This document shows, piece by piece, positions 1 through 62,319 of a stretch of DNA of 64,000 nt (its first letter is position 1; each line of letters starts with the position of its first letter). Source of the stretch: Nanobdellota archaeon. Its GTDB lineage: Archaea; Nanobdellota; Nanobdellia; Pacearchaeales; GW2011-AR1. The stretch lies in assembly GCA_024654565.1 (NCBI GenBank), contig JANLHM010000005.1:9239-73238 (forward strand), written 5' to 3'. The notes beneath the pieces were generated by a model. That model saw nothing but the letters and a program-made list of their open reading frames with translations, was not told the DNA's origin and did no database searches. Made by a program: the position numbers and the translations under genes.

Positions 1-3000
1 CACAGTAACCAACTTCAACCCACCTCTGATTTGGTGTCCCAAAACTTCCGTCACTTTGTGACCCGGGGTTTTCAGTTGCACAGACTCTAACAATTCCGTC
101 GTTATACACTGCGGGATCAATTAAATCTGAAAAGCCTTCTTGTGCATTAAGTCCAAGTAAATTGTATAAATTTGGACCACCTGAAGTACATTCTTCTTGA
201 GTTTTAATGTCAGTTGTATTTGCTTCAGACTGAAGATATTTTTCTTTTAAGTAATCAAGAGCAAAGTCAGTTGTTACACTTCCAAATCCACACTCTTCTT
301 GGTTGTTCACCCTAACACAAAGTTCTTTATATCCTTCGGGAGCTGTGAAGTCAATTGTTTCAGTTTCGTATCCTCCAACAGCGATGTACCCTGAATCAAC
401 TGTTCTTATTGGCGAAATATCTCTGTAAAAAGATGAGCCATCAGTTTTCAAGTAAACTTGATAGTAAGCTCCAGCATTGTTTCCTGCAAATATATGGAAA
501 AACACTTTATAGTGTGCCTGAGGAGGGTTTGTTACACTTGAAAAAGGAATTGCTTCAAAGTTTGCAGTAAATTGAGGTGGACTGTCTGACTGACTTAAAA
601 CGTTCAGGGCCCCTGCATACTGTGGGAAAGCGACTGAAATAAAGTTTTTACATACGGCAGTTCCAACTTCTTCTTGACTTCTTGCTTTAAATGCGTCATA
701 TGAACTTATTGCATAATTTTGAGTAAAAAAGTCTACCGAAGACTCTGCATTCTCAAGTGCCCCCTGTATTCCTCCAATGTATTCACCTCCTCCTTTTGAT
801 CCTCCACCAAATATTAAAGTGTCAAGCTTGGGAATAGTTAATTGGACAATAGGTAGGGCAGTTCTCCATATCAATTCACAACCATATATACTATAAATTT
901 CATCACAAATTCCGACAGTTTTCCCTTCATTTAAGCTTGTTTCAAGACAACTTTGATAAGACTTTGTAACTGAAATAAATCCGTCAAGTCCTGCTTTTAC
1001 CCCGGTTAAACAAACTGGAACATAAATTCCTTCATTCCAGTTTGGAAGGCAAAGTGCAACACTTCCAATTACTCCTGACTGAATAACATCCCTTACCGGG
1101 AAATCTCCTCCAAAGTCACACCTTGATGAAGGACATATTACTGGGTCGCAAGCATTGAACAAAATCTGACAGTCTGTTGGACTCATAACATCAGTACATT
1201 GAGTTGTGGGTAGGTCAACTGCTGGACTTCCCACATTTATTCTTTTCCCATCCCTATTCACATCGACTTGACTTACCCCATTCTTGTATGCTCTTGATGC
1301 AGTTTCAACAGCACTTACTGCTTTCCTTACTAAATTTGTGGCTTCAGAATCTTCAAGACCTGGAAACTGATTATATGGTTGACCTGTTCCAAGGTTTACA
1401 AGTTGACAAATTTCATCCTGTCCAAATGGACTGTATTCAACCACCCCATTTGAACCTGCATTACATAACCAGAAATTGTTCACCCTTGCAGACTGGTCAT
1501 AAGCTCTTGTTTGTGTTACTGAAATTGTTTGAGGGATATATACATACCAACCATTGTCGACGTCAAAAGGAACAACTGCAGGAAGACCTTTGTATGGCTC
1601 AGTTTCATAATACTTTATTTCAGGGTCTTTTATTGGAGTTTCATATGAATTTGCATCATACCTTTTGAAATAAAGTTGAGAAAACTCAACAGGAAGAGTT
1701 TCCTGTGACGCTCTTGATACCCCACTTTCTGAATAAATAACAAGTCCCGCACTATCTCTAACAATGTTAAGAGTTCCAAGAACTTTTTCTTCAAGAACAG
1801 CATAATAAACTTTTCCTTCTGTCGTTACAATTTTTTCTATTGGAGTTGTTGAAATGAATTCTCCTGCAAAAGGTTTTGTTGTGAAGTCTCTAGCAAGTTT
1901 ACCAGAATAAGGAGAAGATTTAGTTTCTTTACCGACAGTCAAAACTGTTACTTCATTAGGATTTAAATTGTCAGTACTTGCAGCCTCATTTAATTTAACT
2001 CTATTGTCCGAATTCACCTGAAGACTATAAAGAGCCGTGTATAACCTCTTTTGATAAGTCGTGTCACTTGGACTTTTACTCACAAGTTTTGAATAAAGTT
2101 CAATATTTCTCGCGTCTTCAAGAGTATAAACCCCGTCTTTAAACCTGTCAAGAGTCAACGAATCTTTTACTTTTGTTAAATTTATTTTTTCTAAAGAGTT
2201 ATCTGGATTAACTACTTCAGACGGTAACCCCCCTAAAACTTGTGGAGCATAATTTTCTATTAACTTTTCTTGGTTAACAACATCATTTCCTAAAAAACCT
2301 CCTTCATTTGTGACACCTTTTAAATTTTCGAGACTTTCAAAATTTTCACTTTGTTGACTCATAATCTCACTCATTTCTTCTACCTGAGTTTCAATTGCAT
2401 TTGAATTTTCAAAAAGACACGCTTCATTTGAAGAATAAACTCCTTCCCTCACCTTATCTTTACAAAACTGATACCACCCTTTTTCTCCATTCATAACTTG
2501 AGTTCTTGCTAAACTTTGTGTGCCCGAATTAAATATTAAATTTTTAAGGGTAAGCACTGCTCCCGTTCCCATACAAACGTCTTTCATAGTGTCAACAACT
2601 GTTCCAAGAGTGTTTGAGATACTTTCAAGTTTATTTGTAAGTGCTTTAGTTTCTTCTATTTGGCTTTTTATCTGGTCTGGAGACAACTGGATTAACCTTT
2701 TTTCAATCCCAATGTTAAAACTAAAATTAACTTCACTTGATTCTTTTATTTGGGTGTGTATTGAAACCTTTGCAACTCTTTTGAAATTTATTTTTGTTAT
2801 GGTAAAAACATATTCAGACCCTTCTATGTTATAAGGAGAGTTTAATTCAAGATTCCTATTTGGAGAACCTAAAAAAGCCCCTATTGAAGAAAATGCACTC
2901 CTATTTTTAAGATGAAGATTAATGTTTGCACTTTCTTGGTCATTAATTTCATTTAATCTAATAAATTCCTGATCTTCAACTTTTCCGCTTGCTTTTAAAA

Positions 3001-5110
3001 TCATTTCCTTTCCTGTTTCAACACTAGACCCCTCTAACTTTGAGATTAATTGTTGAACTTGTGTTGTTGGTTTTTGATTGATGAAGTTTCCTTCACTAAC
3101 TGTAACTGTTGTTCCATCCATCCAATTAATTCTGTCAGCAGACCAAAGCCATTTGACATTATACTTGAAATAAATCTCTCCTCCACTACCTATAGCGTTA
3201 CTAATTGAATAAATTTGCTCTCCTTCAGATTGTAAGTTAAACAAAGGCTCAAGGTAAATTGTATCCCCCTTTAACATTTTTATTGGTTCATCAATTGTAA
3301 CTCCATCTTTTCTTACAAGTATTTCTATTCCGTACTCCTCATGCAGTGGAATTTGAATTCCCTCAAAAGAAATCTGTTTATAATCTCCATTTATTAAAAA
3401 TGTTTTTGAAGAAATTCCGTCGTTAAAGTATGCAGGAATTCCGTCACAAGGTAAAGTCTCCAAATTTGAATTTGGGTAGTTTGATTTAAATAAATCACAA
3501 TACTTTTTCAGGTCTTCCATTTGGCCAAGTTCTAGAGACAAATCAATTGCTTCCTTTAGTGCTTTTTCCCCTAAGAAATATTCTGAACCATCGGGATAAA
3601 CTTCACTTGCAAAGTTGTCTTTAATTTTTTGATAGTCCTTTACAGCACTTCCATAGTATCCACTTAAAGTCTCGTTTCCAAACTTCATGTTTGTTCCAAC
3701 ACCAAAACTTATAATTTCAACTTGTGTTCCAAATACTTTTCTTGGACTTTTATATTCAATTATTTCATAGTTATTCCCGTCAAAAAGCCAGTCTGTAAAT
3801 CCAAGAAAAGCTCCAAAAGCAATTTTTAAGTAATCTGAAGCTGCTTCTGGGTGAAGTATTTTAATTTCGGTACCTCTTGCAGTAGACTTTAAAGTTGCGT
3901 CATCAAGTTTTTTATTTTCTGGAACTGCTCCTGGAACAGTCACTAAACCAATTAGTGAATTTTCTAAATTGTTTTTATTTTTTTGTGTTCCCACATAACC
4001 TAAGTAAACATTTTTGTCCCCGTCATCATTAAGGTATAACCAGTCACCAGCTTTGTATTCTTTTGTGACATTGTTGATACTAAGGTTTATTGTTGGTTCA
4101 ATTCTTAATACAAATGACTCTCTTCCTTTTTCATCACTTAAACAGGATAATTTTACAGTTTGTCTTAACCCTTCTTTTTCAGGGTCATCCGTAATGCTAC
4201 ACTTATCATCCAAAAATGTTTCTCCTCTTTTAACTTCAAAAACTTCTGAATTTACTTTTAAAACTGCACGAGTGTCTGCACCTTCAATTCCATCAAGCCT
4301 TAAGTAAGAAGAAGCAAAGCATCCAAATCCAGGAAGAAAAAATGATGAAGAAGTTTCTCCTATTTCCATATTTCTTGTGAGGATCTTTTCCTTTTCGACA
4401 GTTCCGAGGTTTCCAAGTGACCTGTCATAAACTCCTGAATAAATAGAAACTGTTGCATAATTGTCCCCCACTTCATCAGCTCTTAAGTAACCCATATTGT
4501 TAAAAAAGGCATACTGACCTTGACGCTCATCAAATTCAGCGTCGCTCATTAATGGGAGGTAAAGAGTTCTATCAACTGAACCAAAAGCGTCAATTGCACT
4601 GTACCTTATTCTTGCTTTCAAACTTCCTGAAACAAAGTCAGGTATTGTTGACTCAAGAGGATTTTTTTCAAGGTAAATAACAGCGTAACCAATGTCACTC
4701 CATCCTGCACCTGTAAGTTGTCTGTCAAGCCCTAGAGCAGGGTATGTTGGTAAAAATGCAATTGTTGAAACTTCATCCGGGTAATCCCCCCCAAAAGATA
4801 TTGAATCAATTGCAACAATTTTTACAGCCGGGTTTATTTTAAAAGCCTGAAGTTTACAAAAAACAGGAGTATCTTGTTCCTCTAAAATGTCACTTCTAAC
4901 TACAGGCGGGCTACAACCTCCCGGAGCAATCTGAATAATAAAATCTTGTCCAGTCTCACACATCCCACTATTAATCTCAAGCTCTTGAACTTCTGAACCT
5001 AAAAAAGAGCCTGTTCTTGAGTCAATAAACTTTTCTGAAACAGCGTATGAAGAAGCAAAGCCAAGAAAAACTGTTAAAACTACAAAAACTAAAAACAATT
5101 TTTTAGTCAT
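1..5110 (-). CDS. giant secreted/cell-surface protein, partial (1,703 codons in window; C-terminus lies beyond the left edge)
   Basis: Minus-strand frame opens with ATG at 5110 (MTKKLFLVFVVLTVFLGFASSYAVSEKF.., Sec-type signal) and stays open to position 2 (last residues ..GTPNQRWVEVGYC). It is missing from the ORF track only because it has no stop in the window; any in-frame stop would have produced a listed ORF. The ATG overlaps the TGA of the upstream gene (ATGA, 5107-5110). No family recognised; the distal third is Cys-dense. Confidence 0.8.
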   Translation of the reverse strand, partial: MTKKLFLVFVVLTVFLGFASSYAVSEKFIDSRTGSFLGSEVQELEINSGMCETGQDFIIQIAPGGCSPPVVRSDILEEQDTPVFCKLQAFKINPAVKIVAIDSISFGGDYPDEVSTIAFLPTYPALGLDRQLTGAGWSDIGYAVIYLEKNPLESTIPDFVSGSLKARIRYSAIDAFGSVDRTLYLPLMSDAEFDERQGQYAFFNNMGYLRADEVGDNYATVSIYSGVYDRSLGNLGTVEKEKILTRNMEIGETSSSFFLPGFGCFASSYLRLDGIEGADTRAVLKVNSEVFEVKRGETFLDDKCSITDDPEKEGLRQTVKLSCLSDEKGRESFVLRIEPTINLSINNVTKEYKAGDWLYLNDDGDKNVYLGYVGTQKNKNNLENSLIGLVTVPGAVPENKKLDDATLKSTARGTEIKILHPEAASDYLKIAFGAFLGFTDWLFDGNNYEIIEYKSPRKVFGTQVEIISFGVGTNMKFGNETLSGYYGSAVKDYQKIKDNFASEVYPDGSEYFLGEKALKEAIDLSLELGQMEDLKKYCDLFKSNYPNSNLETLPCDGIPAYFNDGISSKTFLINGDYKQISFEGIQIPLHEEYGIEILVRKDGVTIDEPIKMLKGDTIYLEPLFNLQSEGEQIYSISNAIGSGGEIYFKYNVKWLWSADRINWMDGTTVTVSEGNFINQKPTTQVQQLISKLEGSSVETGKEMILKASGKVEDQEFIRLNEINDQESANINLHLKNRSAFSSIGAFLGSPNRNLELNSPYNIEGSEYVFTITKINFKRVAKVSIHTQIKESSEVNFSFNIGIEKRLIQLSPDQIKSQIEETKALTNKLESISNTLGTVVDTMKDVCMGTGAVLTLKNLIFNSGTQSLARTQVMNGEKGWYQFCKDKVREGVYSSNEACLFENSNAIETQVEEMSEIMSQQSENFESLENLKGVTNEGGFLGNDVVNQEKLIENYAPQVLGGLPSEVVNPDNSLEKINLTKVKDSLTLDRFKDGVYTLEDARNIELYSKLVSKSPSDTTYQKRLYTALYSLQVNSDNRVKLNEAASTDNLNPNEVTVLTVGKETKSSPYSGKLARDFTTKPFAGEFISTTPIEKIVTTEGKVYYAVLEEKVLGTLNIVRDSAGLVIYSESGVSRASQETLPVEFSQLYFKRYDANSYETPIKDPEIKYYETEPYKGLPAVVPFDVDNGWYVYIPQTISVTQTRAYDQSARVNNFWLCNAGSNGVVEYSPFGQDEICQLVNLGTGQPYNQFPGLEDSEATNLVRKAVSAVETASRAYKNGVSQVDVNRDGKRINVGSPAVDLPTTQCTDVMSPTDCQILFNACDPVICPSSRCDFGGDFPVRDVIQSGVIGSVALCLPNWNEGIYVPVCLTGVKAGLDGFISVTKSYQSCLETSLNEGKTVGICDEIYSIYGCELIWRTALPIVQLTIPKLDTLIFGGGSKGGGEYIGGIQGALENAESSVDFFTQNYAISSYDAFKARSQEEVGTAVCKNFISVAFPQYAGALNVLSQSDSPPQFTANFEAIPFSSVTNPPQAHYKVFFHIFAGNNAGAYYQVYLKTDGSSFYRDISPIRTVDSGYIAVGGYETETIDFTAPEGYKELCVRVNNQEECGFGSVTTDFALDYLKEKYLQSEANTTDIKTQEECTSGGPNLYNLLGLNAQEGFSDLIDPAVYNDGIVRVCATENPGSQSDGSFGTPNQRWVEVGYC

Positions 5111-6951
5111 ATGAATTTAAGGCCAACCTCCTTTGCCTCAACTAAAGAATAAACTATCTGGAGTTCCTGAATGTTTGTTGGATTGTTATATCTTTCAACA
5201 CTTATTTCAAGAAGATTATTTTTTGATAAATCTGATTCAGAAAAAGAAATTTCTTTTTGACCGCCTGCAACTAAAACATTTGAAATGTCCTGCTCGGGAA
5301 TGTTTATAGTTTGACATTCTTTGTGGGTTATTCCAAAAATTCCTCCAATTCCTGAAGGAACGTCAACACACTGCTCCATTGTTGTTGCTTCAAACTTCAG
5401 ACTCGAATTGTCAAACACATAAACTCTTACCTCGTAAACTCCTTCACTTAAGTTTATCTTTTTGTTTTCAGGATAAAGAAGTGTATAAGACCCCCCTAAT
5501 TCTTCAGAACTAAATGTTACAACTGCTTTTTCTCTTGAATTAGTGTTACTTAATTTTAAGGCAATTTCTTTTTCATAAACTTTATCCATAACAATTGTCA
5601 AACTTCCCCCATTCACAGTTGAAAACACATTTGAACTTTCTCTGTAACCACTGCTCTTCACGATAACGTTTCCATTAACACACTGCGGGAAACTTCCTTC
5701 AACCTTTCCATTAATTGTTTCTCCAACTTCACATGATGAATCAAAACACTCGTAAGAAACATTTCCTTCAACAGGATTTAATTTCGAATCAACAATTTCA
5801 ACAGTTACATTTGATTTTGCAGCTTCAGAACATAAATTGACTCTTTCAGAAGGGCTTATTACCACATCCCCAAATTTTATCGGGACATTGTTGTCAATTA
5901 TGATTGGGAAAGGGAACTGAAACAATTCGTCATCTTGACTTAATTGGACTAAAACGGAATACTTCATGTCATAAACAAAGTGATATGGAACATAACAAAA
6001 TCCTAATATTCCTAAACCCGGTTCATTCCCTATTGGTTTAGCAACAAGAATTGGGGAGTCTGCTGGTTCAACTTCATAAGTTGAAGGCCAATTTTCAAAG
6101 TTAATTATTCTCACATCTGAGTCTATTGGTAGTTTGAGGTTAAAGTATTCATCACTTCCCCCAAAATTTTTCATAGCAAGGAAATTGTCCCTCGTTGCGT
6201 TTTTTAATTCACTAAAAATTTCGTCAGCATTCCATATTAAAGGAGCACATGACAATTCAAATCCGTCAACTGGGGCGTAAAGCCTTAAAAAATCAATTGA
6301 ATAATTTTCTAAAAACATGTCTCTTTTCTCAATATTATAAAACTCAACTGCATCATTATATAGGGCGCCCATTTTTGAATTAACTTCAACTCTGTGATTA
6401 GTTACAGTAAGTGTTTCACTTCCTTTTTCCATGTTAAGGTTCATCTTAAGGAACACCCTAACAGACCTGTCTAGAATTGAAACTTCAACTTCTGGAATTC
6501 CCCGCCTTATGTTATAACCCTCTTCTAAAAATGAATTTAAGTTGCAACTTTCTATCTGGGTTTCAATATAATCTGAAAGTTGATTCTCTAAGTCTCCCTT
6601 GGATGGAACTTGGTTTATTGGGAGGTTGTTTCCACTAACTGTGTTCCAATACGGAATTCTCCCCCCAAAAAAATTAAGTTCTGATGAAAAAGGCATATAA
6701 GTTGAACCTGGTACAAATGCCGGAGGTTCAATGTAACCTCCTTGAGCACCTAAAACCTTTATCCCTAGCTCAGTTTTTCCACTAACACAATCAAGAAACT
6801 CCGTTTCAACAGGTTGAAAAGTCGGCGAAACCCTTTCTGGAAAAAGGGTGTCTTTAAAGATAAAGTATGAAGCCCCTAAAACAATTATCACAAGCGCAAT
6901 TATTACAAAAATTGTTATCTGTCCCCCCTTATTCCCCCCTTTATGAACCAT
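5107..6951 (-). CDS. large pilin-like protein (class III signal peptide-like N-terminus), function unknown
   Basis: 614-aa ORF. N-terminus MVHKGGNKGGQITIFVIIALVIIVLG has a short basic segment, G-Q, then about 20 hydrophobic residues, as in archaeal prepilin-type signal peptides. The head region is paralogous to 27024..27803. Confidence 0.7.
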   Translation of the reverse strand: MVHKGGNKGGQITIFVIIALVIIVLGASYFIFKDTLFPERVSPTFQPVETEFLDCVSGKTELGIKVLGAQGGYIEPPAFVPGSTYMPFSSELNFFGGRIPYWNTVSGNNLPINQVPSKGDLENQLSDYIETQIESCNLNSFLEEGYNIRRGIPEVEVSILDRSVRVFLKMNLNMEKGSETLTVTNHRVEVNSKMGALYNDAVEFYNIEKRDMFLENYSIDFLRLYAPVDGFELSCAPLIWNADEIFSELKNATRDNFLAMKNFGGSDEYFNLKLPIDSDVRIINFENWPSTYEVEPADSPILVAKPIGNEPGLGILGFCYVPYHFVYDMKYSVLVQLSQDDELFQFPFPIIIDNNVPIKFGDVVISPSERVNLCSEAAKSNVTVEIVDSKLNPVEGNVSYECFDSSCEVGETINGKVEGSFPQCVNGNVIVKSSGYRESSNVFSTVNGGSLTIVMDKVYEKEIALKLSNTNSREKAVVTFSSEELGGSYTLLYPENKKINLSEGVYEVRVYVFDNSSLKFEATTMEQCVDVPSGIGGIFGITHKECQTINIPEQDISNVLVAGGQKEISFSESDLSKNNLLEISVERYNNPTNIQELQIVYSLVEAKEVGLKFI

Positions 6952-7004
6952 TGATAAACAATGAAAAACCCGTATATAAATATTTGTTTAGAAAAGACTT
7001 AATT

Positions 7005-7220
7005 TCAATAAATTCTCATCCTTCTTGCAAAAAACAAGAGATAGAAAAAATTGAGAATTAACAAAATTCCAGTAATTAAAATTAAAATGTCGTTGGCTGA
7101 GCCAGGTAAATTAAAGTCGCCTAAAAAAGGAATTTTTGTGTTGACAATATAAATTCCAAAAATAATATTTATAACCATTAAAATTCTTTTTTTTACATCC
7201 CTCCTATATACCGACCTCAT
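7005..7220 (-). CDS. small hydrophobic protein (hypothetical)
   Basis: 71-aa ORF with two hydrophobic stretches, same strand and about 50 nt upstream of the 614-aa gene. No homology recognised. Confidence 0.35.
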   Translation of the reverse strand: MRSVYRRDVKKRILMVINIIFGIYIVNTKIPFLGDFNLPGSANDILILITGILLILNFFYLLFFARRMRIY

Positions 7221-7244: not shown

Positions 7245-7535
7245 TTAATTCTTTTTCCTGCCTACTTTTTTCTTAACTCCCCCGATAATTTGACCCCAAT
7301 GGTCTTTGAGCCGTTCTATTTCTGGTTCATAAGGACTAACTTTTGACAAGTAGCACAAGCTTTTGAAAAGTTCTTCTGGAAGAGTTCTTGCTTCTGAAAA
7401 ATAGTTCTTTAGCGTTGAATAAGGAACTTCAAATCCGAACTGGTTAAGTGCCCTAAGAGAAGGACAGTTAAGTTTTTCCAAAACATGGACAATAAACTTT
7501 CTTTGCTCTCCTTTTTTGAATCTTACCCTTGACAT
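7245..7535 (-). CDS. hypothetical basic protein, possibly DNA-binding
   Basis: 96-aa ORF with Lys/Arg-rich ends (..GGVKKKVGRKKN). No competing ORF. No motif assigned. Confidence 0.5.
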   Translation of the reverse strand: MSRVRFKKGEQRKFIVHVLEKLNCPSLRALNQFGFEVPYSTLKNYFSEARTLPEELFKSLCYLSKVSPYEPEIERLKDHWGQIIGGVKKKVGRKKN

Positions 7536-10066: not shown

Positions 10067-10396
10067 TTAAATTTTTTCCAGGAAATGGTCAATTCTTGAT
10101 TTTAGTTGTTCTTCCCCCATGTACCCAACAATCCTTCCGACTTCTTTTTTCCCATTAACAATGACAAGAGCTGGAATTCCTTGTATTTCAAACTGCATTG
10201 CAATCATTTCTTCGTTTTCGGTGTTGAGTCTTGCAAAATTCAATCTCCCTTTATACTCTTCACTAATTTTTTCAAAAACAGGTTTTAACATTTTACATGG
10301 TCCGCACCAGTCTGCATAAAAGTCAATTATTACTGGGACTTCTGACTCAAGAACTTCTTCTTGAAAGTTTTCCATTGTTAAATTTTTTACAATCAT
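10067..10396 (-). CDS. trxA: thioredoxin
   Basis: 109 aa with the WCGPC active site and the thioredoxin-fold pattern (..IDFYADWCGPCKML.P....). Confidence 0.9.
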   Translation of the reverse strand: MIVKNLTMENFQEEVLESEVPVIIDFYADWCGPCKMLKPVFEKISEEYKGRLNFARLNTENEEMIAMQFEIQGIPALVIVNGKKEVGRIVGYMGEEQLKSRIDHFLEKI

Positions 10397-15092: not shown

Positions 15093-15509
15093 ATGAAGAA
15101 AGAAACAAAATATAAGGCAATAATTTTTTTAATGATTCTTGCCGCAATCTCATCAGTAATTCTTTCATTTGTTTCACTTGAAGAAGCATGTGGGGGGACT
15201 CTAACCGACCCGACAGGATGCACTCTTATTCAGACATCCGAATATGAATCAATGTTTGGAATGAAGAATGCACACATAGGACTCATAATATTTCCAATAC
15301 TTGCAATACTAACTTTTCTTGAACTTAAGAGACCAAAAAAATATCAAAAAACTGCAATAACGCTGGGGATGGCGATAGGTTCACTCATTGCAATATACTT
15401 TTTGTATCTTCAGTTTTTTATATTAAAAGTAATATGTCAATATTGTATGGTTGTTGACATTGCTGTCTTGGCAAGTATGGCGCTGATTATATTTTGGGAT
15501 GAAAATTGA
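15093..15509 (+). CDS. vitamin K epoxide reductase (VKOR) family disulfide-forming membrane protein
   Basis: 138 aa with about 4 TM helices. Has a loop Cys pair (ACGGTLTDPTGC), then ..TSEYESMFGMKNAHIGL.. (the S-x-Y..G.P-like VKOR loop) and a CQYC redox motif at the start of the last helix. Confidence 0.7.
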   Translation: MKKETKYKAIIFLMILAAISSVILSFVSLEEACGGTLTDPTGCTLIQTSEYESMFGMKNAHIGLIIFPILAILTFLELKRPKKYQKTAITLGMAIGSLIAIYFLYLQFFILKVICQYCMVVDIAVLASMALIIFWDEN

Positions 15510-18310: not shown

Positions 18311-19354
18311 TTACCTTTTAAGGAGTGCACCCGAAGTCCTTCTTGCTTTTGAAAATTTAAAAAAGAAAAACCATATTAAAAATAGTGCGGCCGCTCCTAG
18401 AAGTATCCACCCAATAGTTGACCAGCTTGAACTTTCTTCTGTTTTTGGGACACAATTTCCAGGACAACACTGAGCATCCTTTCCATCTATAAGACTTTCT
18501 TCACACTTTTCTTCATTTGTGCAAATGTCAAACCCTAGTTCAGAGCAAGTCCTTAAATCATTATTGTTTGACATGTTGTTCACAGTATTGTTTGAAAGGT
18601 TATTTTCTTCTGATTCATTATTTCCCCCTCCAAAAATAATTTCCCACCAATTCCCCCCATTTGTTTCATTTTCTTCTTCCTCTTCGGGATCTGTTCCATT
18701 GTAAAACGTTTCATTTGAATATGGTTCACCTTCTATTTCTGGAAGGTTTATGTAAACTAGGGAAGAATAAGTTTCATTCTCAAAAGTGTAAAAAACCTTT
18801 TGAAACTTTGTTCCCCCATAATTCACTAAATTTATTTTCTTTAATTCTCCTGAATTCAAACTTATTACTTCTTCAGGATACCCTTCAACGTTGTATGAGA
18901 TGTTTATCCTTAGGGGGTTTAGGTTCATTAATGAAAGGTCATAGGTATAATTTCCTGGAATTTTGAAAGGAGGTGAAACTTTAACAAAAGAAATTTTATC
19001 AAGAACAATAAACTCTTTTGTAACACTGTCTTCCCTAAACTCTTCCCCTACCCAGTATTTAGCCCCAATTATTCTAACTGAATAATTTCCTGGAGTTCTC
19101 CCTGTTGGGACTGTAGCTGAAACAATATAAGTATTTTCATCTATTTTAGAAAGGCTCATTTCTTCAAACTCAGTTAAACTGTTTTCCCTGTAAAACTTAA
19201 TATTTGAAAGGCTTATTGAATTGTAAAAGTTCCCCGAAACAACTCCAATAAAACTTTCTCCTCCTGAATAAGCTTCATTTGTTTCAATTGTGAGTGCCGA
19301 AACAATACTAAAAAGAACAATAAAAATAAAGAATGCACAAAACACTTTTTTCAT
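18311..19354 (-). CDS. C-terminally anchored surface protein with one Cys-rich module
   Basis: 347 aa. Signal peptide, beta-rich body, DPEEEEENE/Asn-rich linker, module CSELGFDICTNEEKCEESLIDGKDAQCC, then a TM helix and basic tail (..KFSKARRTSGALLKR). Confidence 0.7.
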   Translation of the reverse strand: MKKVFCAFFIFIVLFSIVSALTIETNEAYSGGESFIGVVSGNFYNSISLSNIKFYRENSLTEFEEMSLSKIDENTYIVSATVPTGRTPGNYSVRIIGAKYWVGEEFREDSVTKEFIVLDKISFVKVSPPFKIPGNYTYDLSLMNLNPLRINISYNVEGYPEEVISLNSGELKKINLVNYGGTKFQKVFYTFENETYSSLVYINLPEIEGEPYSNETFYNGTDPEEEEENETNGGNWWEIIFGGGNNESEENNLSNNTVNNMSNNNDLRTCSELGFDICTNEEKCEESLIDGKDAQCCPGNCVPKTEESSSWSTIGWILLGAAALFLIWFFFFKFSKARRTSGALLKR

Positions 19355-19395: not shown

Positions 19396-21501
19396 TTATT
19401 TTCCTATTTCTTTTAATCTCTTAAGAACCGCGTCAAGTTCTTCAGGGGACTTCTTTGGAAGAGGTCTTTGAACTGGTCTAGATGGAGATGGCACCATTTT
19501 TCTTGGAATTGGAGACCCCATCTTCGGACTTCTTGAATATTCTGGGGGGAACCTTGGAGGAAATCCTCTTCCTGGAAGAGGTCTGTTTCCACTACTTCTT
19601 GCTTTTGACTTATCAAAATACTCTTTTATCTTATCCCTATAGAGAATTGCAACAACTATTAGTATCACGAGGGCAAACAAAACCCATATCCACCAATAAC
19701 TTCCCCCTGAAGAAGATGAAGACTCGATACAACACACTTGAGTTCCGCTACATGAAAATTCACTTGTTGATTCATATCCTGAGCCACATGATGAACTACA
19801 AAAACCTAAATTGTCTTCACAAGTAAACTCTTCAGCTTCTAATTCACAATTTCCAGGCTGAAGGCAACAGGACTCTCCGTAATTTAAGTCATCAGTATTA
19901 AGAACGCTTCCTCCCGAACAATACTGGATGTTAGAACAAACTGTTCCTCCTTCTGATGAACAAAATGTTTGTGTGGGTTCGGTGTCACAACACTTCAATG
20001 CTCCTACACATTCATATTGAGGAAGAAGACTTCCCCCTGAACTTGTACATTGGGAACTAAATCCACAGGTAAAATTTTCAAGCTCACATTCTGATTCCCC
20101 TCCGCCTGAACCCAAGTCACAACAAACTTTAGAATCTGAACACAATCCATTTGTAACAGTTCCTGAACATGAATCAATATTGTTAACACAGGCATTTCCT
20201 TGCTCTGAACAAGTTTCATCCTCCTCAATTGGAGTCGGGTCACAGCAGACTGTACCCGCTGAACAACTGTATTCACTTCTTAACATTCCGCTACATGAAG
20301 TGTCAACGCCTATACAACCAAATCCAGCTTGGGAACAAGTGAGTCCTCCGACACCGCCCCCTCTTGGCCAGATTGAATAAAGTATGAAAGCATTTGAAAG
20401 AATGTTGTCGTTATCCCAACATCCATTTTCCCCTTGATAAGTAAGAAGCCATGTTTTTGAATTTTGTTTTTCTGGAAGAGTATTTACTCCCTGAAATGGT
20501 AAAAGGGCTAGTGCAGTGTCATAATACTTTCCCCTTCCCCCTGCAATTTCCCAATAATATTGGTCAAACACATGTTTTTGTTTTGTTAAAATTTCAGTTT
20601 TATGTTCGATTTTATTTGTTAACATATACAAAAATGATGAAGGGAAGGTATTCTGATTAACAGAAGCGAGGCTTGTTAAATAAGGAATAAACCTTAAAAC
20701 AGACTCATCCAATGAATCTAAAACTAAAGTTGTCCAAAGAGTTCCAAGGTAATTGCAACTTCCTGCACTCTTAAAGCAGAATGAACTTATTTTTTCAGTT
20801 GTGTCTCCTCCGCTTGATGCAGAGTGCACTTCGTCAGAAAGGTGGTAAGTTTGAGAAGTCTTTTCTCTATAAACTAAAGTAGTAATAAAATCTTTGCCAC
20901 ATGAAATCTGAAAAGTTCGGTCAAAACAATTTCCATTAATTTTAAACCAATAGTCATTGTTTGCTCTGGTCAAACATGCACCTGCGTTAGAACTTAATTT
21001 TTTATTTTCTGCGATGTCAAAAGTGTATTCGTCATACGGATTAAAAGATGAGCCCTGTCTTGGAACAAGGACAGTGCATGTCAAAGCTTGCTCTCCTCCT
21101 CCACTGTTATCAATCTGAAGGAACCAATCTAAATCTGTTGAAATTCCTTCCTGACTAAGAAGCCAAGCTTTTGGAAGAGTAATGTTTTCATCTACACTGT
21201 CTAGTGCAAGAACTGCTTTTGCAGTTGTTTCAAGGTCACAAGAAGATTGACCTTTATTCTTTGGCCAACACTCTCCATCCCCAAGAGTATCATTCAATAA
21301 AGAATCTTTACATTCTCCAACTGAAAGAAGCGAAAATATTTTTTGTTCAATAGTTAAATTTGAACAGGTTTCGTTTCCAATTTGATTTTCAAGACATAAA
21401 TATGCCTCTTCAACCTGATCAGATTCCGCAGAATGAACTCCCGCAATTAGAAAGACTGAAATTAAAACAGTAACAGCGAGTATCCCTACCTCTTTTCTCA
21501 T
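19396..21501 (-). CDS. type I membrane surface protein: alpha/alpha-toroid-like domain, five 6-Cys modules, TM helix, Pro-rich cytoplasmic tail
   Basis: 701 aa. Signal peptide (..AGVHSAES). QW-type motif WLLTYQGENGCW as in prenyltransferase/squalene-cyclase repeats. Residues 389-591 hold five tandem C-x6-C-x5/6-C-x8-12-C-x5-CC modules. TM helix WWIWVLFALVILIVVAILY. Tail rich in PxxP. Confidence 0.75.
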   Translation of the reverse strand: MRKEVGILAVTVLISVFLIAGVHSAESDQVEEAYLCLENQIGNETCSNLTIEQKIFSLLSVGECKDSLLNDTLGDGECWPKNKGQSSCDLETTAKAVLALDSVDENITLPKAWLLSQEGISTDLDWFLQIDNSGGGEQALTCTVLVPRQGSSFNPYDEYTFDIAENKKLSSNAGACLTRANNDYWFKINGNCFDRTFQISCGKDFITTLVYREKTSQTYHLSDEVHSASSGGDTTEKISSFCFKSAGSCNYLGTLWTTLVLDSLDESVLRFIPYLTSLASVNQNTFPSSFLYMLTNKIEHKTEILTKQKHVFDQYYWEIAGGRGKYYDTALALLPFQGVNTLPEKQNSKTWLLTYQGENGCWDNDNILSNAFILYSIWPRGGGVGGLTCSQAGFGCIGVDTSCSGMLRSEYSCSAGTVCCDPTPIEEDETCSEQGNACVNNIDSCSGTVTNGLCSDSKVCCDLGSGGGESECELENFTCGFSSQCTSSGGSLLPQYECVGALKCCDTEPTQTFCSSEGGTVCSNIQYCSGGSVLNTDDLNYGESCCLQPGNCELEAEEFTCEDNLGFCSSSCGSGYESTSEFSCSGTQVCCIESSSSSGGSYWWIWVLFALVILIVVAILYRDKIKEYFDKSKARSSGNRPLPGRGFPPRFPPEYSRSPKMGSPIPRKMVPSPSRPVQRPLPKKSPEELDAVLKRLKEIGK

Positions 21502-24654: not shown

Positions 24655-25659
24655 ATGGTTTACATATATAAAAAAAGCGCAGGGAAAAAGAATTATTATT
24701 ACCTAAGAATATCAAAAAGAAAAGGGAAAAAAATAATTACAAAAGACCTTGCTTATTTAGGCGGGACTATAAAAGAAGCAAGAAAAAAGCTTTCAAATTT
24801 GTCTTCCCATAAAGAAGAGATAAGAAAAGCATACAGAAATTTGAACATTTTTTTAGATACAAATTATTACCTTGAAAAAATAAAAGACCTAAAATTAAAA
24901 AAGAATGAATTTCTGGGTAAAAAGTTGGAAGAAATTGAGGCCTGTAGACTCCATTTTCAAGAAAAATTTCAAAATCTGGATAAATTGACAAAAAGAGAGA
25001 TTATGAAAAATTTCCTAATTGAATTTGCATATAACTCAACCTCAATCGAGGGAAATACCATAAATTTGGAAGAAGCTAAACATCTTTTACAAGAAGGGTT
25101 GACACCAAAGGATAAAACTCTTAGAGAGATATATGATTTAAAAAATACTGAAAGTGTTTTTTTTGAATTATACGAATCAAATTTCAAAGAAGAATTAACA
25201 CACAATTCCATAATCAAAATTCATGAAAAGCTCATGGAAAATGTTGATGCAAGAAAAGGATACAGAAATTCTGATGTTAGGGTTATAAGAAGTAATTTTG
25301 ATGCTTCCCCTGCACCATATGTGAAGACTGACATGGATTTATTGTTAAAATGGTATAAAAATAATGAGAAAAAAATTCACCCTTTTGTTCTTTCAACAAT
25401 ATTTCACCATAAATTTGAAAAGATTCATCCATTTATGGATGGAAATGGAAGAACTGGCAGAATGATTATGAATCTTATTCTTTTGAAAAAGGGATATCCC
25501 CCAATAGTAATAAGGAAAAAATTCAGGAAAGAATATTTAGATTCCATGAGAATTGCAGATAAAAGTAATTTAAATTCCTCAAAAAAAGAAGATTACCTAA
25601 ATCTTGTTCAATTTAGTGCAAACGAATTAACTGAAAATTATTGGAATTTATTTTTATAA
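24655..25659 (+). CDS. Fic-domain protein (AMPylase family) with internal inhibitory motif
   Basis: HPFMDGNGRTGR matches the Fic motif HxFx(D/E)GNGRxxR. Upstream STSIEGN fits the [ST]xxxE[GN] auto-inhibition helix. Confidence 0.9.
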   Translation: MVYIYKKSAGKKNYYYLRISKRKGKKIITKDLAYLGGTIKEARKKLSNLSSHKEEIRKAYRNLNIFLDTNYYLEKIKDLKLKKNEFLGKKLEEIEACRLHFQEKFQNLDKLTKREIMKNFLIEFAYNSTSIEGNTINLEEAKHLLQEGLTPKDKTLREIYDLKNTESVFFELYESNFKEELTHNSIIKIHEKLMENVDARKGYRNSDVRVIRSNFDASPAPYVKTDMDLLLKWYKNNEKKIHPFVLSTIFHHKFEKIHPFMDGNGRTGRMIMNLILLKKGYPPIVIRKKFRKEYLDSMRIADKSNLNSSKKEDYLNLVQFSANELTENYWNLFL

Positions 25660-27023: not shown

Positions 27024-27803
27024 ATGATGAAAGGGGTTGAAAGAAAAAAGGGACAAGTAACAATATTTGTTATAATTGCTCTCGTTATAATTGTTTTTGG
27101 GACCCTTATGTACTTTTTTTATCCAGGAATAAACTCATCAGAGTCAGGAATTGATGAAAATCCAAGGGCTTATATGCAAAATTGCGTTGAAGACCTCCTT
27201 CAAGAAAAAATTGATTTAATAAGCTCTCAAGGTGGAAGTATTGAACCTGATTCAAGTTATACTTACGACGGAGAACCTATTGAATACCTTTGTTACACAA
27301 GTAGACTTTCTGACCCTTGTACTGTGCAAAGAGCCTTTTTGGTAAGTCACATTGAGAGCGAAATAAAAGAAAGTACAGAAGACAAAGTTAATGAATGTTT
27401 TACAAAGATGGAAAGTGATTACCGAGCTAGGGGATATACTCTAACTCTTAACAGAGGAAACCTTCGAGCAACTCTTGCTCCAGGAAGGGCTATTCTTTTT
27501 AGTGATTCAAGACTTACTTTAACAAAAGACTCAACTCAAAATTATGAAAGTTTTGATATAGTTGTGAACAATAATCTTTTTGAACTCGCTTCACTTGCGA
27601 GAACGGTGATAGATTGGGAAAGTACCTATGGAATTGCTGACCCTTTTTACTTTATGACTTGGTACAAAGACAAATTCAACATAAAGAAAGTTTCACCTGA
27701 TGGGGGGAAAACAGCGATATGGACAATAGAAGACACAAATTCAGGGGACACTTTCAGATTTGCTGTAACTGAAAGCGAAATTTCTCTCGGAATAGGAATA
27801 TAA
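27024..27803 (+). CDS. pilin-like protein (class III signal peptide-like N-terminus), paralog of the 5107..6951 head region
   Basis: 259 aa. MMKGVERKKGQVTIFVIIALVIIVFG.. and the shared block ..NCVEDLLQEKIDLISSQGGSIEP... Confidence 0.7.
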   Translation: MMKGVERKKGQVTIFVIIALVIIVFGTLMYFFYPGINSSESGIDENPRAYMQNCVEDLLQEKIDLISSQGGSIEPDSSYTYDGEPIEYLCYTSRLSDPCTVQRAFLVSHIESEIKESTEDKVNECFTKMESDYRARGYTLTLNRGNLRATLAPGRAILFSDSRLTLTKDSTQNYESFDIVVNNNLFELASLARTVIDWESTYGIADPFYFMTWYKDKFNIKKVSPDGGKTAIWTIEDTNSGDTFRFAVTESEISLGIGI

Positions 27804-27804
27804 G

Positions 27805-29595
27805 ATGAAAAAGAGTGTGACAAAGACAAGACTTTTAGGAATTCTTTTAGCTTTTGCTTTTATTTTAATTACATTAAACTTTGTTTCTGCAGAAAACAAT
27901 GTTTGTTGTGAAAGAATCAAAACTAATTCTGACGGAAGTGGAGGCCAATGGTGTCAAATGGCTCCAGTTGAAGCTTGTGACACTTCAGATGGTTTACGAA
28001 CTGCTCCAACTTCATGTCAATCGACCGAGTTTTGTTCAGTAGGAACTTGTGTAGACATTCAAAAGGGACTTTGTGAAAGTGGAGTTTCAAGTGTAGTTTG
28101 TGGAGAGAGTGGAGGATTTTTTGATGAAAGAAGTCCTTCTGAAATCCCAAGTTGTAAATTAGGTTGTTGTGTCCTTGGACAAAATGGAGCAAACCTTGCA
28201 ACTGAAGTAAGATGTAGTGAAATGTCTTCACTTTATGGAGTGAACATTAACTTTAACCCTGGGATCACTTCTGAACTTCTCTGCCTTGCAACTGCAGGTG
28301 GAGCTGAAAAAGGGGCATGTGTATATGAAACTGAAACAGTAAGAACTTGTTCAATGCTCTCAAGGTCTGAATGTAACGACCTTCAGGGAAACATTTCAAC
28401 AGCAAACATCCCTGAATTTTATGAAGGATATTTATGTTCAAGTGCTGAGCTTCAAGGGGTTGATTGTGGGCCAAGTGAGGAAACAACATGTATTATAGGA
28501 GAAGATGAAATTTATTTTGTTGACACTTGCGGAAACACCGCTAACATTTATGATTCAAGTCGTCAGAGTGACCCATTATATTGGTCAAAAATAATTCAAA
28601 AAGAAGATTCTTGTGGGGCTGGAAACAGTAACGCTAATTCAGCTTCATGTGGAAATTGTAATTTTTATTCAGGAAGTACATGTAAAGAATATGTAAGGGG
28701 AGAAACTGCTCAACCAGCATATGGAGACTTTATATGTAAAGACCTTGGATGTAAATACGAAGAAGTTAGTTACCAACATGGAGAACAATGGTGTGGTGAA
28801 GCACCAGGAACCCCTAAGTTAACTGACCCCACTCAAACGGGGAATTATGTTTTTAATGGAAATTCTGATGCACAAGACACTAAAAAAGAAAACCTTCCTG
28901 GTTCAGTGTTCACAAAGCTCACATGCTTTAATGGAGAAATAACTGTTGACAATTGTTATGACGGTAGACAAAAAGTTTGTATTGAAGACGAAATAAACGG
29001 ATTCAAAAATGCGGCGTGTATGCCTAATTCGTGGCAGGAATGTTATGGTATAACCAATGAAGGAGATTGTATGGACAGGAATGCAAGAAAGTGTAATTGG
29101 TTACCTGAAGCTTATCCTTTCCCAACTGCCAGTTCATCTGAAGTTCCAAAGACGAGCCCAAATGATATATTTGCGGACTATTGGAGTGGTAGTGGAAGCC
29201 AGTATATACTTGCTGGAGCTTGCGTTCCACTTAATGCCCCTGGTTTTGACTTTTGGAAAGGAGAAGGAAACGGGGAAGCAATAAGTTCTCTTGGGACGAT
29301 AGTTTGCGAATATGACATCAGATGGAGTGTAGCTAACGGATATTACTTTGAAGAAGGTAAAGGACGAGAGTGTTTAACCAGTGCTGAAGAAGGGGGCGAC
29401 GGAGGACGTAAAATAAGAAATGACTGGCTTGACATAAACCTTGCAAGATGTCTTCAAATAGGGGACTCAGGACCAAAGTTAAATTACTTAGGATACCCTG
29501 GTGAGTCTCAGATTATCGCAGAGAAAATTTTGGCAGGGGGCGTTAAGGGGCAACAAATCGCTTATGACGGAAAAACAATGACTGGTCGTACATAA
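27805..29595 (+). CDS. Cys-rich secreted protein
   Basis: 596 aa. Sec signal (..LNFVSAENN). 39 Cys by my count. No recognised domain. Starts 2 nt after the upstream stop. Confidence 0.75.
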   Translation: MKKSVTKTRLLGILLAFAFILITLNFVSAENNVCCERIKTNSDGSGGQWCQMAPVEACDTSDGLRTAPTSCQSTEFCSVGTCVDIQKGLCESGVSSVVCGESGGFFDERSPSEIPSCKLGCCVLGQNGANLATEVRCSEMSSLYGVNINFNPGITSELLCLATAGGAEKGACVYETETVRTCSMLSRSECNDLQGNISTANIPEFYEGYLCSSAELQGVDCGPSEETTCIIGEDEIYFVDTCGNTANIYDSSRQSDPLYWSKIIQKEDSCGAGNSNANSASCGNCNFYSGSTCKEYVRGETAQPAYGDFICKDLGCKYEEVSYQHGEQWCGEAPGTPKLTDPTQTGNYVFNGNSDAQDTKKENLPGSVFTKLTCFNGEITVDNCYDGRQKVCIEDEINGFKNAACMPNSWQECYGITNEGDCMDRNARKCNWLPEAYPFPTASSSEVPKTSPNDIFADYWSGSGSQYILAGACVPLNAPGFDFWKGEGNGEAISSLGTIVCEYDIRWSVANGYYFEEGKGRECLTSAEEGGDGGRKIRNDWLDINLARCLQIGDSGPKLNYLGYPGESQIIAEKILAGGVKGQQIAYDGKTMTGRT

Positions 29596-29611
29596 AAAAA
29601 ATTAAAGAAAA

Positions 29612-31855: not shown

Positions 31856-31943
31856 GGAATAAATTTTATTCAATAAACTTTTCTGTTTTTAATTTTTTGA
31901 ATTTGACCCCCATACTTATAAAGTTATACTCATTTAGAAAAAG

Positions 31944-32202
31944 ATGTTTGAAATATCCACCTATAACAAAAAAATAAAGAAAGAACTTGAAAAATATATT
32001 TCAATAAGACTTGGAATAAGTAAAAAACTTAACAAACTTAAAGAAAATCCAAGAAAAGAATCTGGTGCACATCCTCTTCACGGAAGGTTAACTGGAAAAA
32101 TAGTCCTGTTGGCTCGGCTCGAATATAAGGCTAATTTATAAAATATTAGATTCAGAAAAATTAATTATAGTGGAAGCTGTTGGTTCCCACAAAATTTACT
32201 AA
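31944..32202 (+). pseudogene. RelE/ParE-superfamily toxin gene interrupted by a frameshift
   Basis: Frame 0 gives ..AHPLHGRLTGKIV.. and stops at 32141. The +1 frame from 32104 gives ..CWLGSNIRLIYKILDSEKLIIVEAVGSHKIY*, the canonical RelE C-terminus. The frame switch lies between 32104 and 32110. Confidence 0.55.
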
Positions 32203-32215
32203 AATAGTTTTTAAG

Positions 32216-32389
32216 TTAAATATTTACCTTAATTAATTTTGAACCCATTCTTTCAAGAGTCTCACTTTCATTAATTTGTTCCATTAACCCTTTACTTTGT
32301 AGAATCTCAATTGTTGACTTTATTCCTTCTATTTGTCTCATAAAGTCGCTCAATTCTTCATAGGTGATATTTAATTCTTTTTTATTCAT
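32216..32389 (-). CDS. small antitoxin-like protein (57 aa, below track cutoff)
   Basis: Hand translation gives MNKKELNITYEELSDFMRQIEGIKSTIEILQSKGLMEQINESETLERMGSKLIKVNI. The ..TIEIL.S..LM..I.. segment resembles Phd/YefM-type antitoxin C-terminal regions. Convergent with the RelE pseudogene. Confidence 0.35.
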   Translation of the reverse strand: MNKKELNITYEELSDFMRQIEGIKSTIEILQSKGLMEQINESETLERMGSKLIKVNI

Positions 32390-32509
32390 ATTTAAAAAAC
32401 ATTAAATGAGTTTATAAAACTTTTTAGAATTGCCTCAAATTTACTTGTTTAAATGTCTCAAATTTAATTTTTCGCGAACCTTTAAAAATTACAGTAACAT
32501 AGTTTATGT

Positions 32510-32923: not shown

Positions 32924-32940
32924 GATGAAAAAAAAGATTT

Positions 32941-33701: not shown

Positions 33702-33803
33702 AAATGTAAAAAGACTTACTTGATTTAAACTTTACTCTTAACCCAATTATAGATACAAATGTCTTCTCACAAAATTTAAAAGTTAAGAAACTGTTATTTA
33801 AAC

Positions 33804-62286: not shown

Positions 62287-62319
<33 letters not shown>

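Follow-up and report, generated by a model that had tools for sequence, protein, structure and literature searches.

The window, the whole 64,000-nucleotide stretch of DNA that we analysed, comes from a DPANN archaeon of the Pacearchaeota type. At one end it carries two minus-strand ORFs, one of 614 amino acids (5107–6951), here called the partner, and one that stays open for 1,703 codons up to the window edge (1–5110), here called the giant. At a stop probability of 0.079 per codon, derived from the local base composition, open stretches of 1,703 and 614 codons have chance probabilities of about 10^-60.6 and 10^-21.8. The stop codon of the partner gene and the start codon of the giant gene share an ATGA overlap (5107–5110, minus strand), which couples the two translationally. 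The window holds the first 1,703 of 2,639 giant codons, comprising nearly the whole conserved body (residues 1 to ~1810), and is over this length 100% identical to the full-length protein P0001. An archaeal TATA box, TTTATATA, is located at 6973–6980 on the minus strand, −29 to −22 from the partner ATG, and one with the same spacing is present in about half of the orthologous loci, which suggests that the operon transcript is leaderless and starts from this box. Upstream on the same strand lie orf71 (7005–7220), a small membrane protein with two TM segments and ~65 residues in its family, and orf96 (7245–7535), a small basic protein. The DPANN origin proposed in the earlier note is borne out by the archaeal LSU rRNA at 60606–64000, which confirms an archaeal host, and by the homologues of both proteins, which originate from Pacearchaeota and Nanoarchaeota MAGs.

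The earlier note had called the giant an orphan, and this description has to be abandoned. An exhaustive phmmer search with the giant core yields 875 representative clusters at 50% identity, all of the giant type, and the family is sharply delimited. For the partner, over 1,900 homologues were found, and at least 538 species-representative genomes encode it. Full-length collinear homologues of the giant with 50–78% identity are found on many independent contigs; the long ORF is therefore neither chimeric nor interrupted. A chimeric or interrupted ORF is what the note had named as fatal to its reading. The note had also proposed extending the ORF to full length, which gives the 2,639 residues of P0001, and examining co-occurrence: in 80/80 loci with enough downstream DNA to assess, the next gene after the partner gene belongs to the giant family. 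The 4-nt ATGA overlap is identical in 47 of these loci, and the junction falls between −4 and +9 nt in 60. With its family profile, orf71 is recovered immediately upstream and in the same orientation from 59 of 75 loci, and also from the window, making this small protein the third conserved member of the module. For orf96, which has no family match, tblastn places a homologue upstream on the same strand in ~24 loci, and its part in the module is uncertain. In relatives with 34–49% identity the pair occupies a fixed housekeeping neighbourhood (S3Ae ... TFIIB, S8e, LSM). Genes for VKOR and thioredoxin are located near the locus.

Nothing but the unusual size of the giant could point to an assembly chimera or to a virus or integrated element; PHROG matches are confined to its SLT domain. 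The collinear homologues on independent contigs, the conserved synteny with ribosomal and transcription genes and the absence of viral fold matches effectively refute this explanation, whose probability is close to nil.

The partner begins with MVHKGGNKGGQITIFVIIALVIIVLG. Its class III signal peptide and hydrophobic helix (6844–6951, minus strand) have a predicted processing site between G10 and Q11 (Q11 codon at 6919–6921). Positions +2 to +22 are hydrophobic, and AF2 models residues 9–36 as a helix. In the full-length members among the 120 homologues listed, the sequence [KR]-[GA]-Q-[VIL]-T-[IV]-F, with a hydrophobic helix of ~20 residues after it, is essentially invariant. The pattern x-[GA]-Q-[VILF]-T occurs within the first 70 residues of 98 of the 120 homologues listed; Q at +1, T at +3 and F at +5 are invariant among these matches, and K or R occupies −2 in 86. 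The 22 remaining sequences are mostly minor variants (atypical −2, Ser at −1, Ser or Ala at +3), and two are N-terminally truncated. The window protein, in which the site reads NKGG/QITIF, itself has an atypical −2 residue (KGGQ). Confirmed EppA sites in M. maripaludis pilins are KGQV, KGQI and KGQL (PMC4371748). Judged by sequence, the partner N-terminus qualifies as a class III (prepilin-like) signal of the EppA subtype with predicted processing; this puts the class III layout that the earlier note had recognised on firmer ground.

The model places a linker (residues 37–45) behind the N-terminal helix, and after this linker a ~310-residue α/β head (residues ~46–360; 5872–6816, minus strand) with invariant Cys, His, Glu and Asp residues. 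The partner has 10 invariant Cys in total. Residues ~375–614 (5110–5829, minus strand) form C-terminal β-sandwich “stalk” domains in the AF2 model (pLDDT 82), which Foldseek relates to Gram-positive pilins, SpaC and SlaB. The first ~200 residues of the head are common to a 259-residue paralogue (27024–27803), which heads a conserved, pilin-like cluster of its own; the small window ORFs of that cluster have class-III-like N-termini.

These features bear on the idea that the partner is a minor modular type IV pilin, cleaved and polymerised, with the giant at the pilus tip in the manner of PilY1. This is a special case of the tether explanation given below, with distinct predictions. It would account for the KGQ[VI] motif with its invariant Gln at +1, as at EppA-type pilin sites, and for the ~70 N-terminal residues that partner and paralogue have in common, as the pilins of one system share their α1 helix; the class-III-like ORFs in the paralogue's cluster and the parallel with PilY1, likewise a large Sec-exported protein beside pilin-like genes, point the same way. 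Against it, PilB/PilC-type genes and a prepilin peptidase were found near neither cluster: the window ORFs scanned include no A24 prepilin peptidase and no gene for a pilus ATPase or platform (T2SSE/T2SSF), and none of these genes was seen in five annotated relatives over a distance of 10 kb. Such genes may lie elsewhere in the genome. Moreover, the modelled helix is set off by the linker rather than packed on a β-sheet, Foldseek returns no type IV pilin for the partner, position +5 is an invariant Phe and not Glu, and the giant has no Pfam match to PilY1/PilC. We consider the pilus-tip arrangement decidedly unlikely.

The giant N-terminus, MTKKLFLVFVVLTVFLGFASSYAVS, is the sole TM-like or hydrophobic segment in all 2,639 residues, which upholds the Sec-type signal claimed for it earlier. 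This signal peptide covers residues 1 to ~25 (5036–5110, minus strand) and ends in ...GFASSYA/VS; about 80 orthologues have an equivalent K/R-rich n-region, hydrophobic stretch and SA-type end. The body that follows contains a conserved N-terminal region with 6 conserved Cys (residues ~51–600; 3311–4960), delimited by the conservation profile and BLAST blocks, a variable insertion site (residues ~620–715; 2966–3253) with an occupancy of 0.2–0.5, and the most conserved part, a Cys-rich core predicted to be largely helical (residues ~1300–1450; 761–1213), all on the minus strand. The Cys-dense motif quoted in the earlier note is present and lies in this core, and the giant has 28 conserved Cys in total. 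The body model is mixed α/β and of moderate confidence (pLDDT 68.6). Body residues 715–1810 have no fold match in the PDB at E ≤ 1e-3, S-layer proteins included, and neither a sequence nor a fold relative of the ~1,800-residue body was detected. Pfam and NCBIfam show neither PilY1/PilC β-propeller or vWA domains nor RHS/YD or FHA repeats in the giant.

A purely structural role, in which the pair would form an S-layer or obligatory wall layer similar to SlaA/SlaB with the enzymes as accessories, has to be weighed here. The pair is near-universal, apparently single-locus and placed in a housekeeping neighbourhood behind a strong promoter, and Foldseek links the partner stalk to SlaB (8qox_B). 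That link is a generic β-sandwich match with a TM score of 0.12–0.16, however, and the mixed α/β, Cys-rich body resembles no S-layer protein in the PDB. At 44945–46585 the window has a match to NF033506, the curated “putative S-layer protein” of Pacearchaeota (E = 2e-118), and it also encodes an 875-residue ORF whose positional counterpart in the syntenic L085 cluster carries S_layer_C. Neither partner nor giant matches an S-layer family, and they do not qualify as archaeal S-layer proteins; a structural envelope role is highly improbable.

Across the family, a constant, anchorless, Cys-rich body of ~1,800 residues is joined to a variable C-terminal extension of 6 to 1,211 residues. The earlier note could assign no motif to the giant. 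This holds within the window and fails past its edge, where an SLT domain and a Cys/His domain are located. The SLT domain of P0001 (PF01464, residues 2300–2381, E = 1.4e-9) has the motifs ...MYKESSCNPLADSGSSYGLMQIN...RRYNGWG, as in Family 1 lytic transglycosylases (GH23). The signature of that family is a catalytic Glu in E-S, followed by GLMQ and then a Y-N-x-G-type motif; by these motifs the domain is a predicted Family 1 enzyme. The C-terminal domain (residues ~2455–2639), a candidate papain-fold peptidase of the NlpC/P60 type, has an invariant Cys and His and a near-invariant Asp in an alignment of 13 sequences. Its Pfam matches are below threshold, to NLPC_P60 in 3 of the 13 (best E = 0.09) and to Amidase_6 in 2 (E = 0.0085), and a PDB profile search with this domain gave no match. 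Among 50 extensions, SLT is found in 15, and glucosaminidase, M15_4 and SLT_2 in single cases. Further giant members carry Amidase_3, M23, YkuD or Hydrolase_2, and ankyrin or LRR domains also occur in the extensions of relatives. In P0035 and P0066 the SLT domain is not C-terminal and occupies the insertion site of the body. The motif pair ES...G[LIVMA][MLF]Q is intact in 26 of 28 SLT-bearing members, and its second half reads GLMQ or GIMQ wherever the pair matches. A recognisable wall-lytic domain is missing from about half of the family, so the conserved body must serve more than the delivery of a hydrolase.

The giant might be released as a free bacteriolysin for antibacterial action or scavenging, and the partner, perhaps with orf71, would then assist in its export, folding or disulfide formation. 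The coupled operon fits the partner as a tether and also fits such a chaperone or maturation role. The giant lacks an anchor, its many conserved Cys could need a dedicated maturation factor, and bacteria-killing archaeal peptidoglycan hydrolases are documented and prominent in Nanoarchaeota (PMC12352652). A diffusible lysin would have no need of a conserved body of ~1,800 residues, however, and the many giants without a recognisable hydrolase domain are hard to reconcile with this role. The β-sandwich stalk of the partner is typical of surface-displayed proteins, and no chaperone or oxidoreductase motif was found in the partner. A free lysin therefore appears unlikely.

The explanation we favour, with a probability of about 50%, is that the giant, which has no anchor, is tethered to the cell surface by the partner and digests bacterial murein there. 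Gene structure, conservation, coupling, signal motifs and domain content are observed; contact between the two proteins, surface location, signal processing and the bacterial peptidoglycan target are our inference. The genes would constitute a surface module that Pacearchaeota-type DPANN archaea inherit vertically, in which a leaderless transcript from the TATA box encodes the 614-residue protein and then, through the ATGA overlap, the 2,639-residue protein, with the gene for the ~65-residue two-TM protein just upstream. The partner would enter the membrane by its class III signal and, like pilins and bindosome proteins, retain the hydrophobic helix at its N-terminus, and outside the cell would display its disulfide-rich α/β head on the β-sandwich stalk. 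The giant, rich in conserved Cys and devoid of an anchor of its own, would be exported through Sec and be held at the surface by the partner, which may itself be anchored in the membrane or form part of a pilus-like fibre; the two would be in direct contact at roughly 1:1 stoichiometry. The constant body may provide scaffold and reach, although the scaffold role is a guess given the moderate-confidence model and the lack of a fold match. The interchangeable C-terminal extension would be the working end, here the SLT lytic transglycosylase together with a Cys/His domain that may be papain-like, which would bind and locally digest bacterial murein for attachment, feeding or killing. A more far-reaching proposal, which we put forward tentatively and regard as doubtful, is that the two-TM protein, the prepilin-like partner and the giant form an undescribed surface apparatus, with the partner processed by a prepilin peptidase and perhaps at the tip of a pilus-like fibre, that presents an anchorless “lance” of 2–3 kaa and acts as the core host-contact or attack organelle of Pacearchaeota-type MAGs from at least 538 species. 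As part of this tentative proposal, the lance would have a fold without known relatives and interchangeable murein-lytic heads. If it is true, bacteria rather than archaea would be the usual partners or prey.

Large extracellular murein-transglycosylase proteins of Pace- and Woesearchaeota have been reported as fam00969 (Castelle 2021, PMC8204110), and the same protein type was reported by Vigneron et al. 2022 (PMC9723730). The giant, whose named homologues in Pacearchaeota and Nanoarchaeota are annotated “transglycosylase SLT domain-containing protein”, is almost certainly a member of this fam00969-type family, matched by its published description and not by a family list: both have a size of up to ~3,000 residues, the same taxon, a secretion signal, SLT/GH23 and an action on bacterial walls that has been proposed. 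In those papers SLT is the defining feature of the family, whereas here SLT is present in ~30% of members and is one of several swappable domains, and a pilin-like partner gene before the giant is unmentioned in them (PMC8204110, PMC9723730). The giant thus belongs to a family that appears known yet never characterised, and its invariant partner appears undescribed. The earlier note could not map the pairing to a described system, which agrees with our literature search, in which none was found.

The body always shares its core-chromosome locus with a prepilin-like protein, to which it is usually coupled in translation, together with a small membrane protein. We know of no Pacearchaeota cultured with a host, and whether they depend on bacteria or on archaea is an open question; among genomic hints, the SLT-bearing giants have so far been the chief one in favour of bacterial hosts. 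Their meaning changes when the hydrolase is seen as an accessory that can be exchanged while the body stays constant. For genome mining, we suggest that this lifestyle is better marked by the conserved pair than by SLT alone. The three proteins also provide a concrete target for localisation, expression of the lytic head and modelling of the complex.

Several known systems resemble parts of this module. The partner is similar to the EppA-dependent Epd pilins of M. maripaludis in its short basic N-region, the [KR]-G preceding Gln at +1 and the hydrophobic helix (KGQV/KGQI), and differs from them in having no pilin fold match and no adjacent assembly genes seen. The Sulfolobus bindosome, in which large non-pilin sugar-binding proteins are displayed in the envelope via class III signals, is a precedent for such a signal on a large non-pilin protein. 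Unlike these class III proteins, the partner, whose processing is predicted, has 614 residues with a large head and stalk, and Phe instead of Glu at +5. SlaA/SlaB of the Sulfolobales likewise combine a membrane-anchored β-sandwich stalk protein with a co-transcribed, far larger anchorless partner, but the SlaB anchor is a C-terminal TM segment and that of our partner is N-terminal and pilin-like, the fold match is generic, and the window encodes S-layer candidates apart from this pair. PilY1 is presented by pilin-like proteins for adhesion, and its tip complex with minor pilins in bacterial type IVa pili is comparable in that a large Sec-exported non-pilin accompanies pilin-like proteins; the giant has no sequence or domain homology to PilY1, is archaeal, is two to three times larger and carries lytic enzymes. 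Polymorphic toxins (CdiA, Rhs, MafB) and virion lysins (T7 gp16, tape-measure/Tal proteins with SLT/M23) resemble the giant in that the part for delivery is conserved and the enzyme at the C-terminus can be exchanged, and in the use of SLT, M23 and amidase “warheads” to breach murein. The giant differs in lacking RHS/YD, haemagglutinin and phage-tail domains as well as an immunity gene, in giving no viral fold match, and in its location in the core chromosome.

Two genes on the minus strand make up the pair considered here. The first encodes the partner, a 614-aa pilin-like protein (5107-6951, -) with the N-terminus MVHKGGNKGGQITIFVIIALVIIVLG, and its TGA overlaps the ATG of the second in an ATGA (5107-5110, -). 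The second encodes the giant, whose frame (1-5110, -) stays open for 1,703 codons up to the window edge and begins with a Sec-type signal peptide. The window has a G+C content of ~33%; its local composition predicts 0.079 stops per codon, so a frame of this length would stay open by chance with a probability of about 10^-60.6. ORF analysis confirms what the earlier note had read from the sequence, namely the two-ORF layout, the overlap, the frame open to the edge and the Sec signal of the giant. The translational coupling and the co-occurrence of the two families also hold in other genomes. Our locus set comprises 80 loci fetched via the partner and three via giant homologues. The junction is the identical ATGA overlap in 47 of 80 loci and lies between -4 and +9 nt in 60, and a giant-family gene is the next gene after the partner, on the same strand, in 80 of the 80 loci with enough downstream DNA.

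A canonical TATA box (TTTATATA) lies at 6973-6980, spanning exactly positions -29 to -22 relative to the start codon of the partner, and is found at the same distance in about half of the loci. This position implies that the transcript of the pair would be leaderless. Many of the loci without that TATA box have an SD-like GGAGGTGA and a 45-aa ORF ahead of the partner. This ORF (MKKYLLLIEDEKLWEKFK..., for example L023:3677-3814 and L037:9877-10014) lies between the partner and a two-TM gene in 26 of 75 loci and is absent from the window; our guess is that it may encode a ribbon-helix-helix-like regulator. The two-TM proteins themselves form a family of ~65-71 aa, and 59 of the 75 loci encode a member immediately before the partner and in the same orientation. 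The window member, orf71 (7005-7220, -), was not mentioned in the earlier note and probably belongs to the module as its third component. A small basic protein, orf96 (7245-7535, -), is retained in about 24 loci, again upstream. In relatives that are only 34-49% identical, the pair keeps its housekeeping neighbors (S3Ae ... TFIIB, S8e, LSM), and on this gene order it is part of the core chromosome. An origin as an artefact or a mobile element, against which this conserved neighborhood speaks, has negligible probability.

Neither protein is an orphan, the label that the earlier note had given to the giant. More than 1,900 homologues of the partner exist; their length hardly varies (600-635 aa), and relatives occur in at least 538 species-representative genomes. 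In this family the N-terminal consensus is [KR]-[GA]-Q-[VIL]-T-[IV]-F-[IV]-I-[IL]-A..., in which Gln +1, Thr +3 and Phe +5 are invariant. In Methanococcus maripaludis pilins the experimentally confirmed EppA sites are KGQV, KGQI and KGQL, and EppA needs Gln +1 (PMC4371748). This agreement makes the predicted class III signal of the partner well supported at the motif level. Also invariant in the family are 10 Cys and many His, Glu, Asp and Tyr residues. An AF2 model of the partner (pLDDT 82) consists of a helix at residues 9-36, a linker, an alpha/beta head of ~310 aa and C-terminal beta-sandwich domains. The pilin-like assignment is supported at the level of the EppA-type N-terminal motif only. 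Foldseek matched only the sandwich stalk, generically and at low TM (Gram-positive pilins, SpaC, SlaB and teneurin, 0.1-0.17). Comparison of the partner with the giant gave no relationship.

The giant matches at least 86 proteins, and its own full-length form, P0001 (2,639 aa, with a murein lytic transglycosylase, or SLT, domain), is among the matches listed; named relatives come from Pacearchaeota/Nanoarchaeota MAGs. An exhaustive phmmer census queried with the best-conserved core segment (aa 1290-1460), clustered at 50% identity, returned 875 clusters at E <= 1e-3, 770 of them at E <= 1e-30. The family is sharply delimited. Among 150 matches listed, the core lies at about residues 1100-1500 in full-length hits (~1,800-3,400 aa) and elsewhere in shorter, probably truncated entries. 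BLAST and MAFFT delimit a conserved body from aa 1 to ~1810, with a variable insert at ~620-715, 28 conserved cysteines and maximal conservation at 1300-1450. Variable sequence follows from approximately residue 1810 onward, and this extension ranges from 6 to 1,211 aa in 53 complete orthologues from different species. A Pfam scan of 50 of these extensions found SLT in 15 and SLT_2, Glucosaminidase, Peptidase_M15_4, DUF1615 and Ankyrin repeats in one each; Amidase_3, M23, YkuD, Hydrolase_2, LRR or FGE-sulfatase/GDSL domains occur in other family members. In two members SLT sits at the mid-body variable site rather than at the C-terminus, and 26 of the 28 SLT-bearing members retain the ES...GLMQ catalytic motifs intact.

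Since the body ends near aa 1810 and these domains lie in the extension, the window holds essentially the whole conserved body, and the recognizable enzymes are encoded past its edge. Pfam, NCBIfam and PDB sequence searches with the in-window portions of the two proteins gave no match, and the SLT domain is the sole match in PHROGs. The absence of an assignable motif from the giant, as first reported, is thus true of the in-window part but not of full-length P0001, which carries SLT. The terminal domain of P0001 recurs in 13 loci, with Cys and His invariant and Asp nearly so; against Pfam it reaches NlpC/P60 and Amidase_6 at sub-threshold level only, and a PDB search with its profile gave no match. 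In an AF2 model (mean pLDDT 68.6), residues 715-1810 of the body are mixed alpha/beta with a largely helical Cys-rich core. Foldseek with this region against PDB and BFVD returned nothing at E <= 1e-3, the best hits, weaker than that value, being Fn3/CARDB-like sandwiches.

The signal peptide is the sole hydrophobic segment of the giant. In the simplest model, to which we assign a probability of about 0.5, both proteins would be made from a single leaderless, translationally coupled message; the giant would be exported without an anchor, and the partner, retaining its N-terminal membrane or filament helix beneath a stalk-and-head architecture, would tether it at the cell surface. In this model the conserved body would serve as a scaffold and give reach, and the exchangeable enzymes at the C-terminus would have bacterial peptidoglycan as their substrate. 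To our knowledge, these archaea make no peptidoglycan of their own. A giant freely released as a bacteriolysin, with the partner as its maturation helper, is rather unlikely. The body is retained even in the roughly half of members without a recognizable hydrolase, and its role must go further than carrying such enzymes.

The tether model includes, as a special case, a pilus-tip complex, which we consider unlikely. A second pilin-like gene (27024-27803, +; 259 aa, start ...RKKGQVTIFVIIALVIIVFG) has the signal KKGQVTIF, of the same kind as that of the partner, and is a paralogue of the partner's first ~200 residues (BLAST E = 5e-9; HMM E = 1.4e-16). It opens a cluster of seven genes (27024-35705, +; roughly 259, 596, 747, 149, 310, 175 and 156 aa) whose order is conserved in two relatives (loci L085 and L086) and which adjoins a candidate S-layer gene. 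Within 1 nt of its stop follows a very Cys-rich 596-aa protein with a Sec signal, then the 747-aa protein and four small ORFs with class-III-like N-termini in the window (MSKKGEIKLSF.., MIKKGGFLDISF.., ..KKAQVKVQQMAF.. and MNNKKAQSEMVGF..). The giant-family HMM does not match the large Cys-rich proteins of this cluster, so the predicted paralogy between the two modules is limited to the pilin-like gene. A scan of 20 window ORFs and of the genes within 10 kb in five annotated relatives turned up neither a pilus ATPase nor a platform protein or prepilin peptidase, and no pilus ATPase lies near the second cluster. Two other loci (L052:5711-6247 and L056:5202-5720) have an additional partner-like match, which shares 25-30% identity with the first ~200 residues, sits ~4 kb upstream of the main pair and is probably a short paralogue of the 27024-27803 kind placed near the pair.

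A structural envelope layer built from the pair is very unlikely, and we set this reading aside because the window has two separate S-layer candidates. One (44945-46585, -; 546 aa) matches the curated Pacearchaeota family NF033506 of NCBIfam, 'PACE-CTERM-PROT putative S-layer protein' (E = 2e-118). The other (37728-40355, +; 875 aa) is Thr/Ser/Asp-rich with the C-terminus '...VVGG...LVVAGYEAADT', and counts as a candidate since the protein at the equivalent position in the syntenic L085 cluster carries PF05124 S_layer_C. Near the pair lie genes for a VKOR-family protein (15093-15509, +; PF07884, E = 3.7e-17) and a thioredoxin-like protein (10067-10396, -), which would fit extracytoplasmic disulfide formation in the many Cys-rich secreted proteins of the window. 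Two further secreted proteins (18311-19354, - and 19396-21501, -) have a signal peptide, a C-terminal TM and no family match, and the 701-aa one carries repeated Cys-rich modules (..CS.G..C.G...CC..). The window also encodes a Fic/DOC-domain protein (24655-25659, +) and a queuosine-salvage protein (59506-60489, +; PF10343, E = 3.7e-66; compare the bacterial-type queuosine pathway in DPANN, Castelle et al. 2021). The LSU rRNA at 60606-64000 (-) marks the window as archaeal; its match spans 3,395 nt against model positions 195-2987, and the excess of ~600 nt suggests that the 23S rRNA gene may contain an insertion or intron.

We found no description of the partner-giant pairing in the literature searched, where the constant-body, swappable-head architecture of the giant, the invariant prepilin-like partner, the small membrane protein of the module and the conserved promoter with translational coupling also appear undescribed. 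The giant itself is almost certainly a new member of a published, uncharacterized family, the large extracellular murein-transglycosylase proteins of Pace-/Woesearchaeota, for which binding or degradation of bacterial walls has been proposed (PMC8204110; PMC9723730; PMC11537232).
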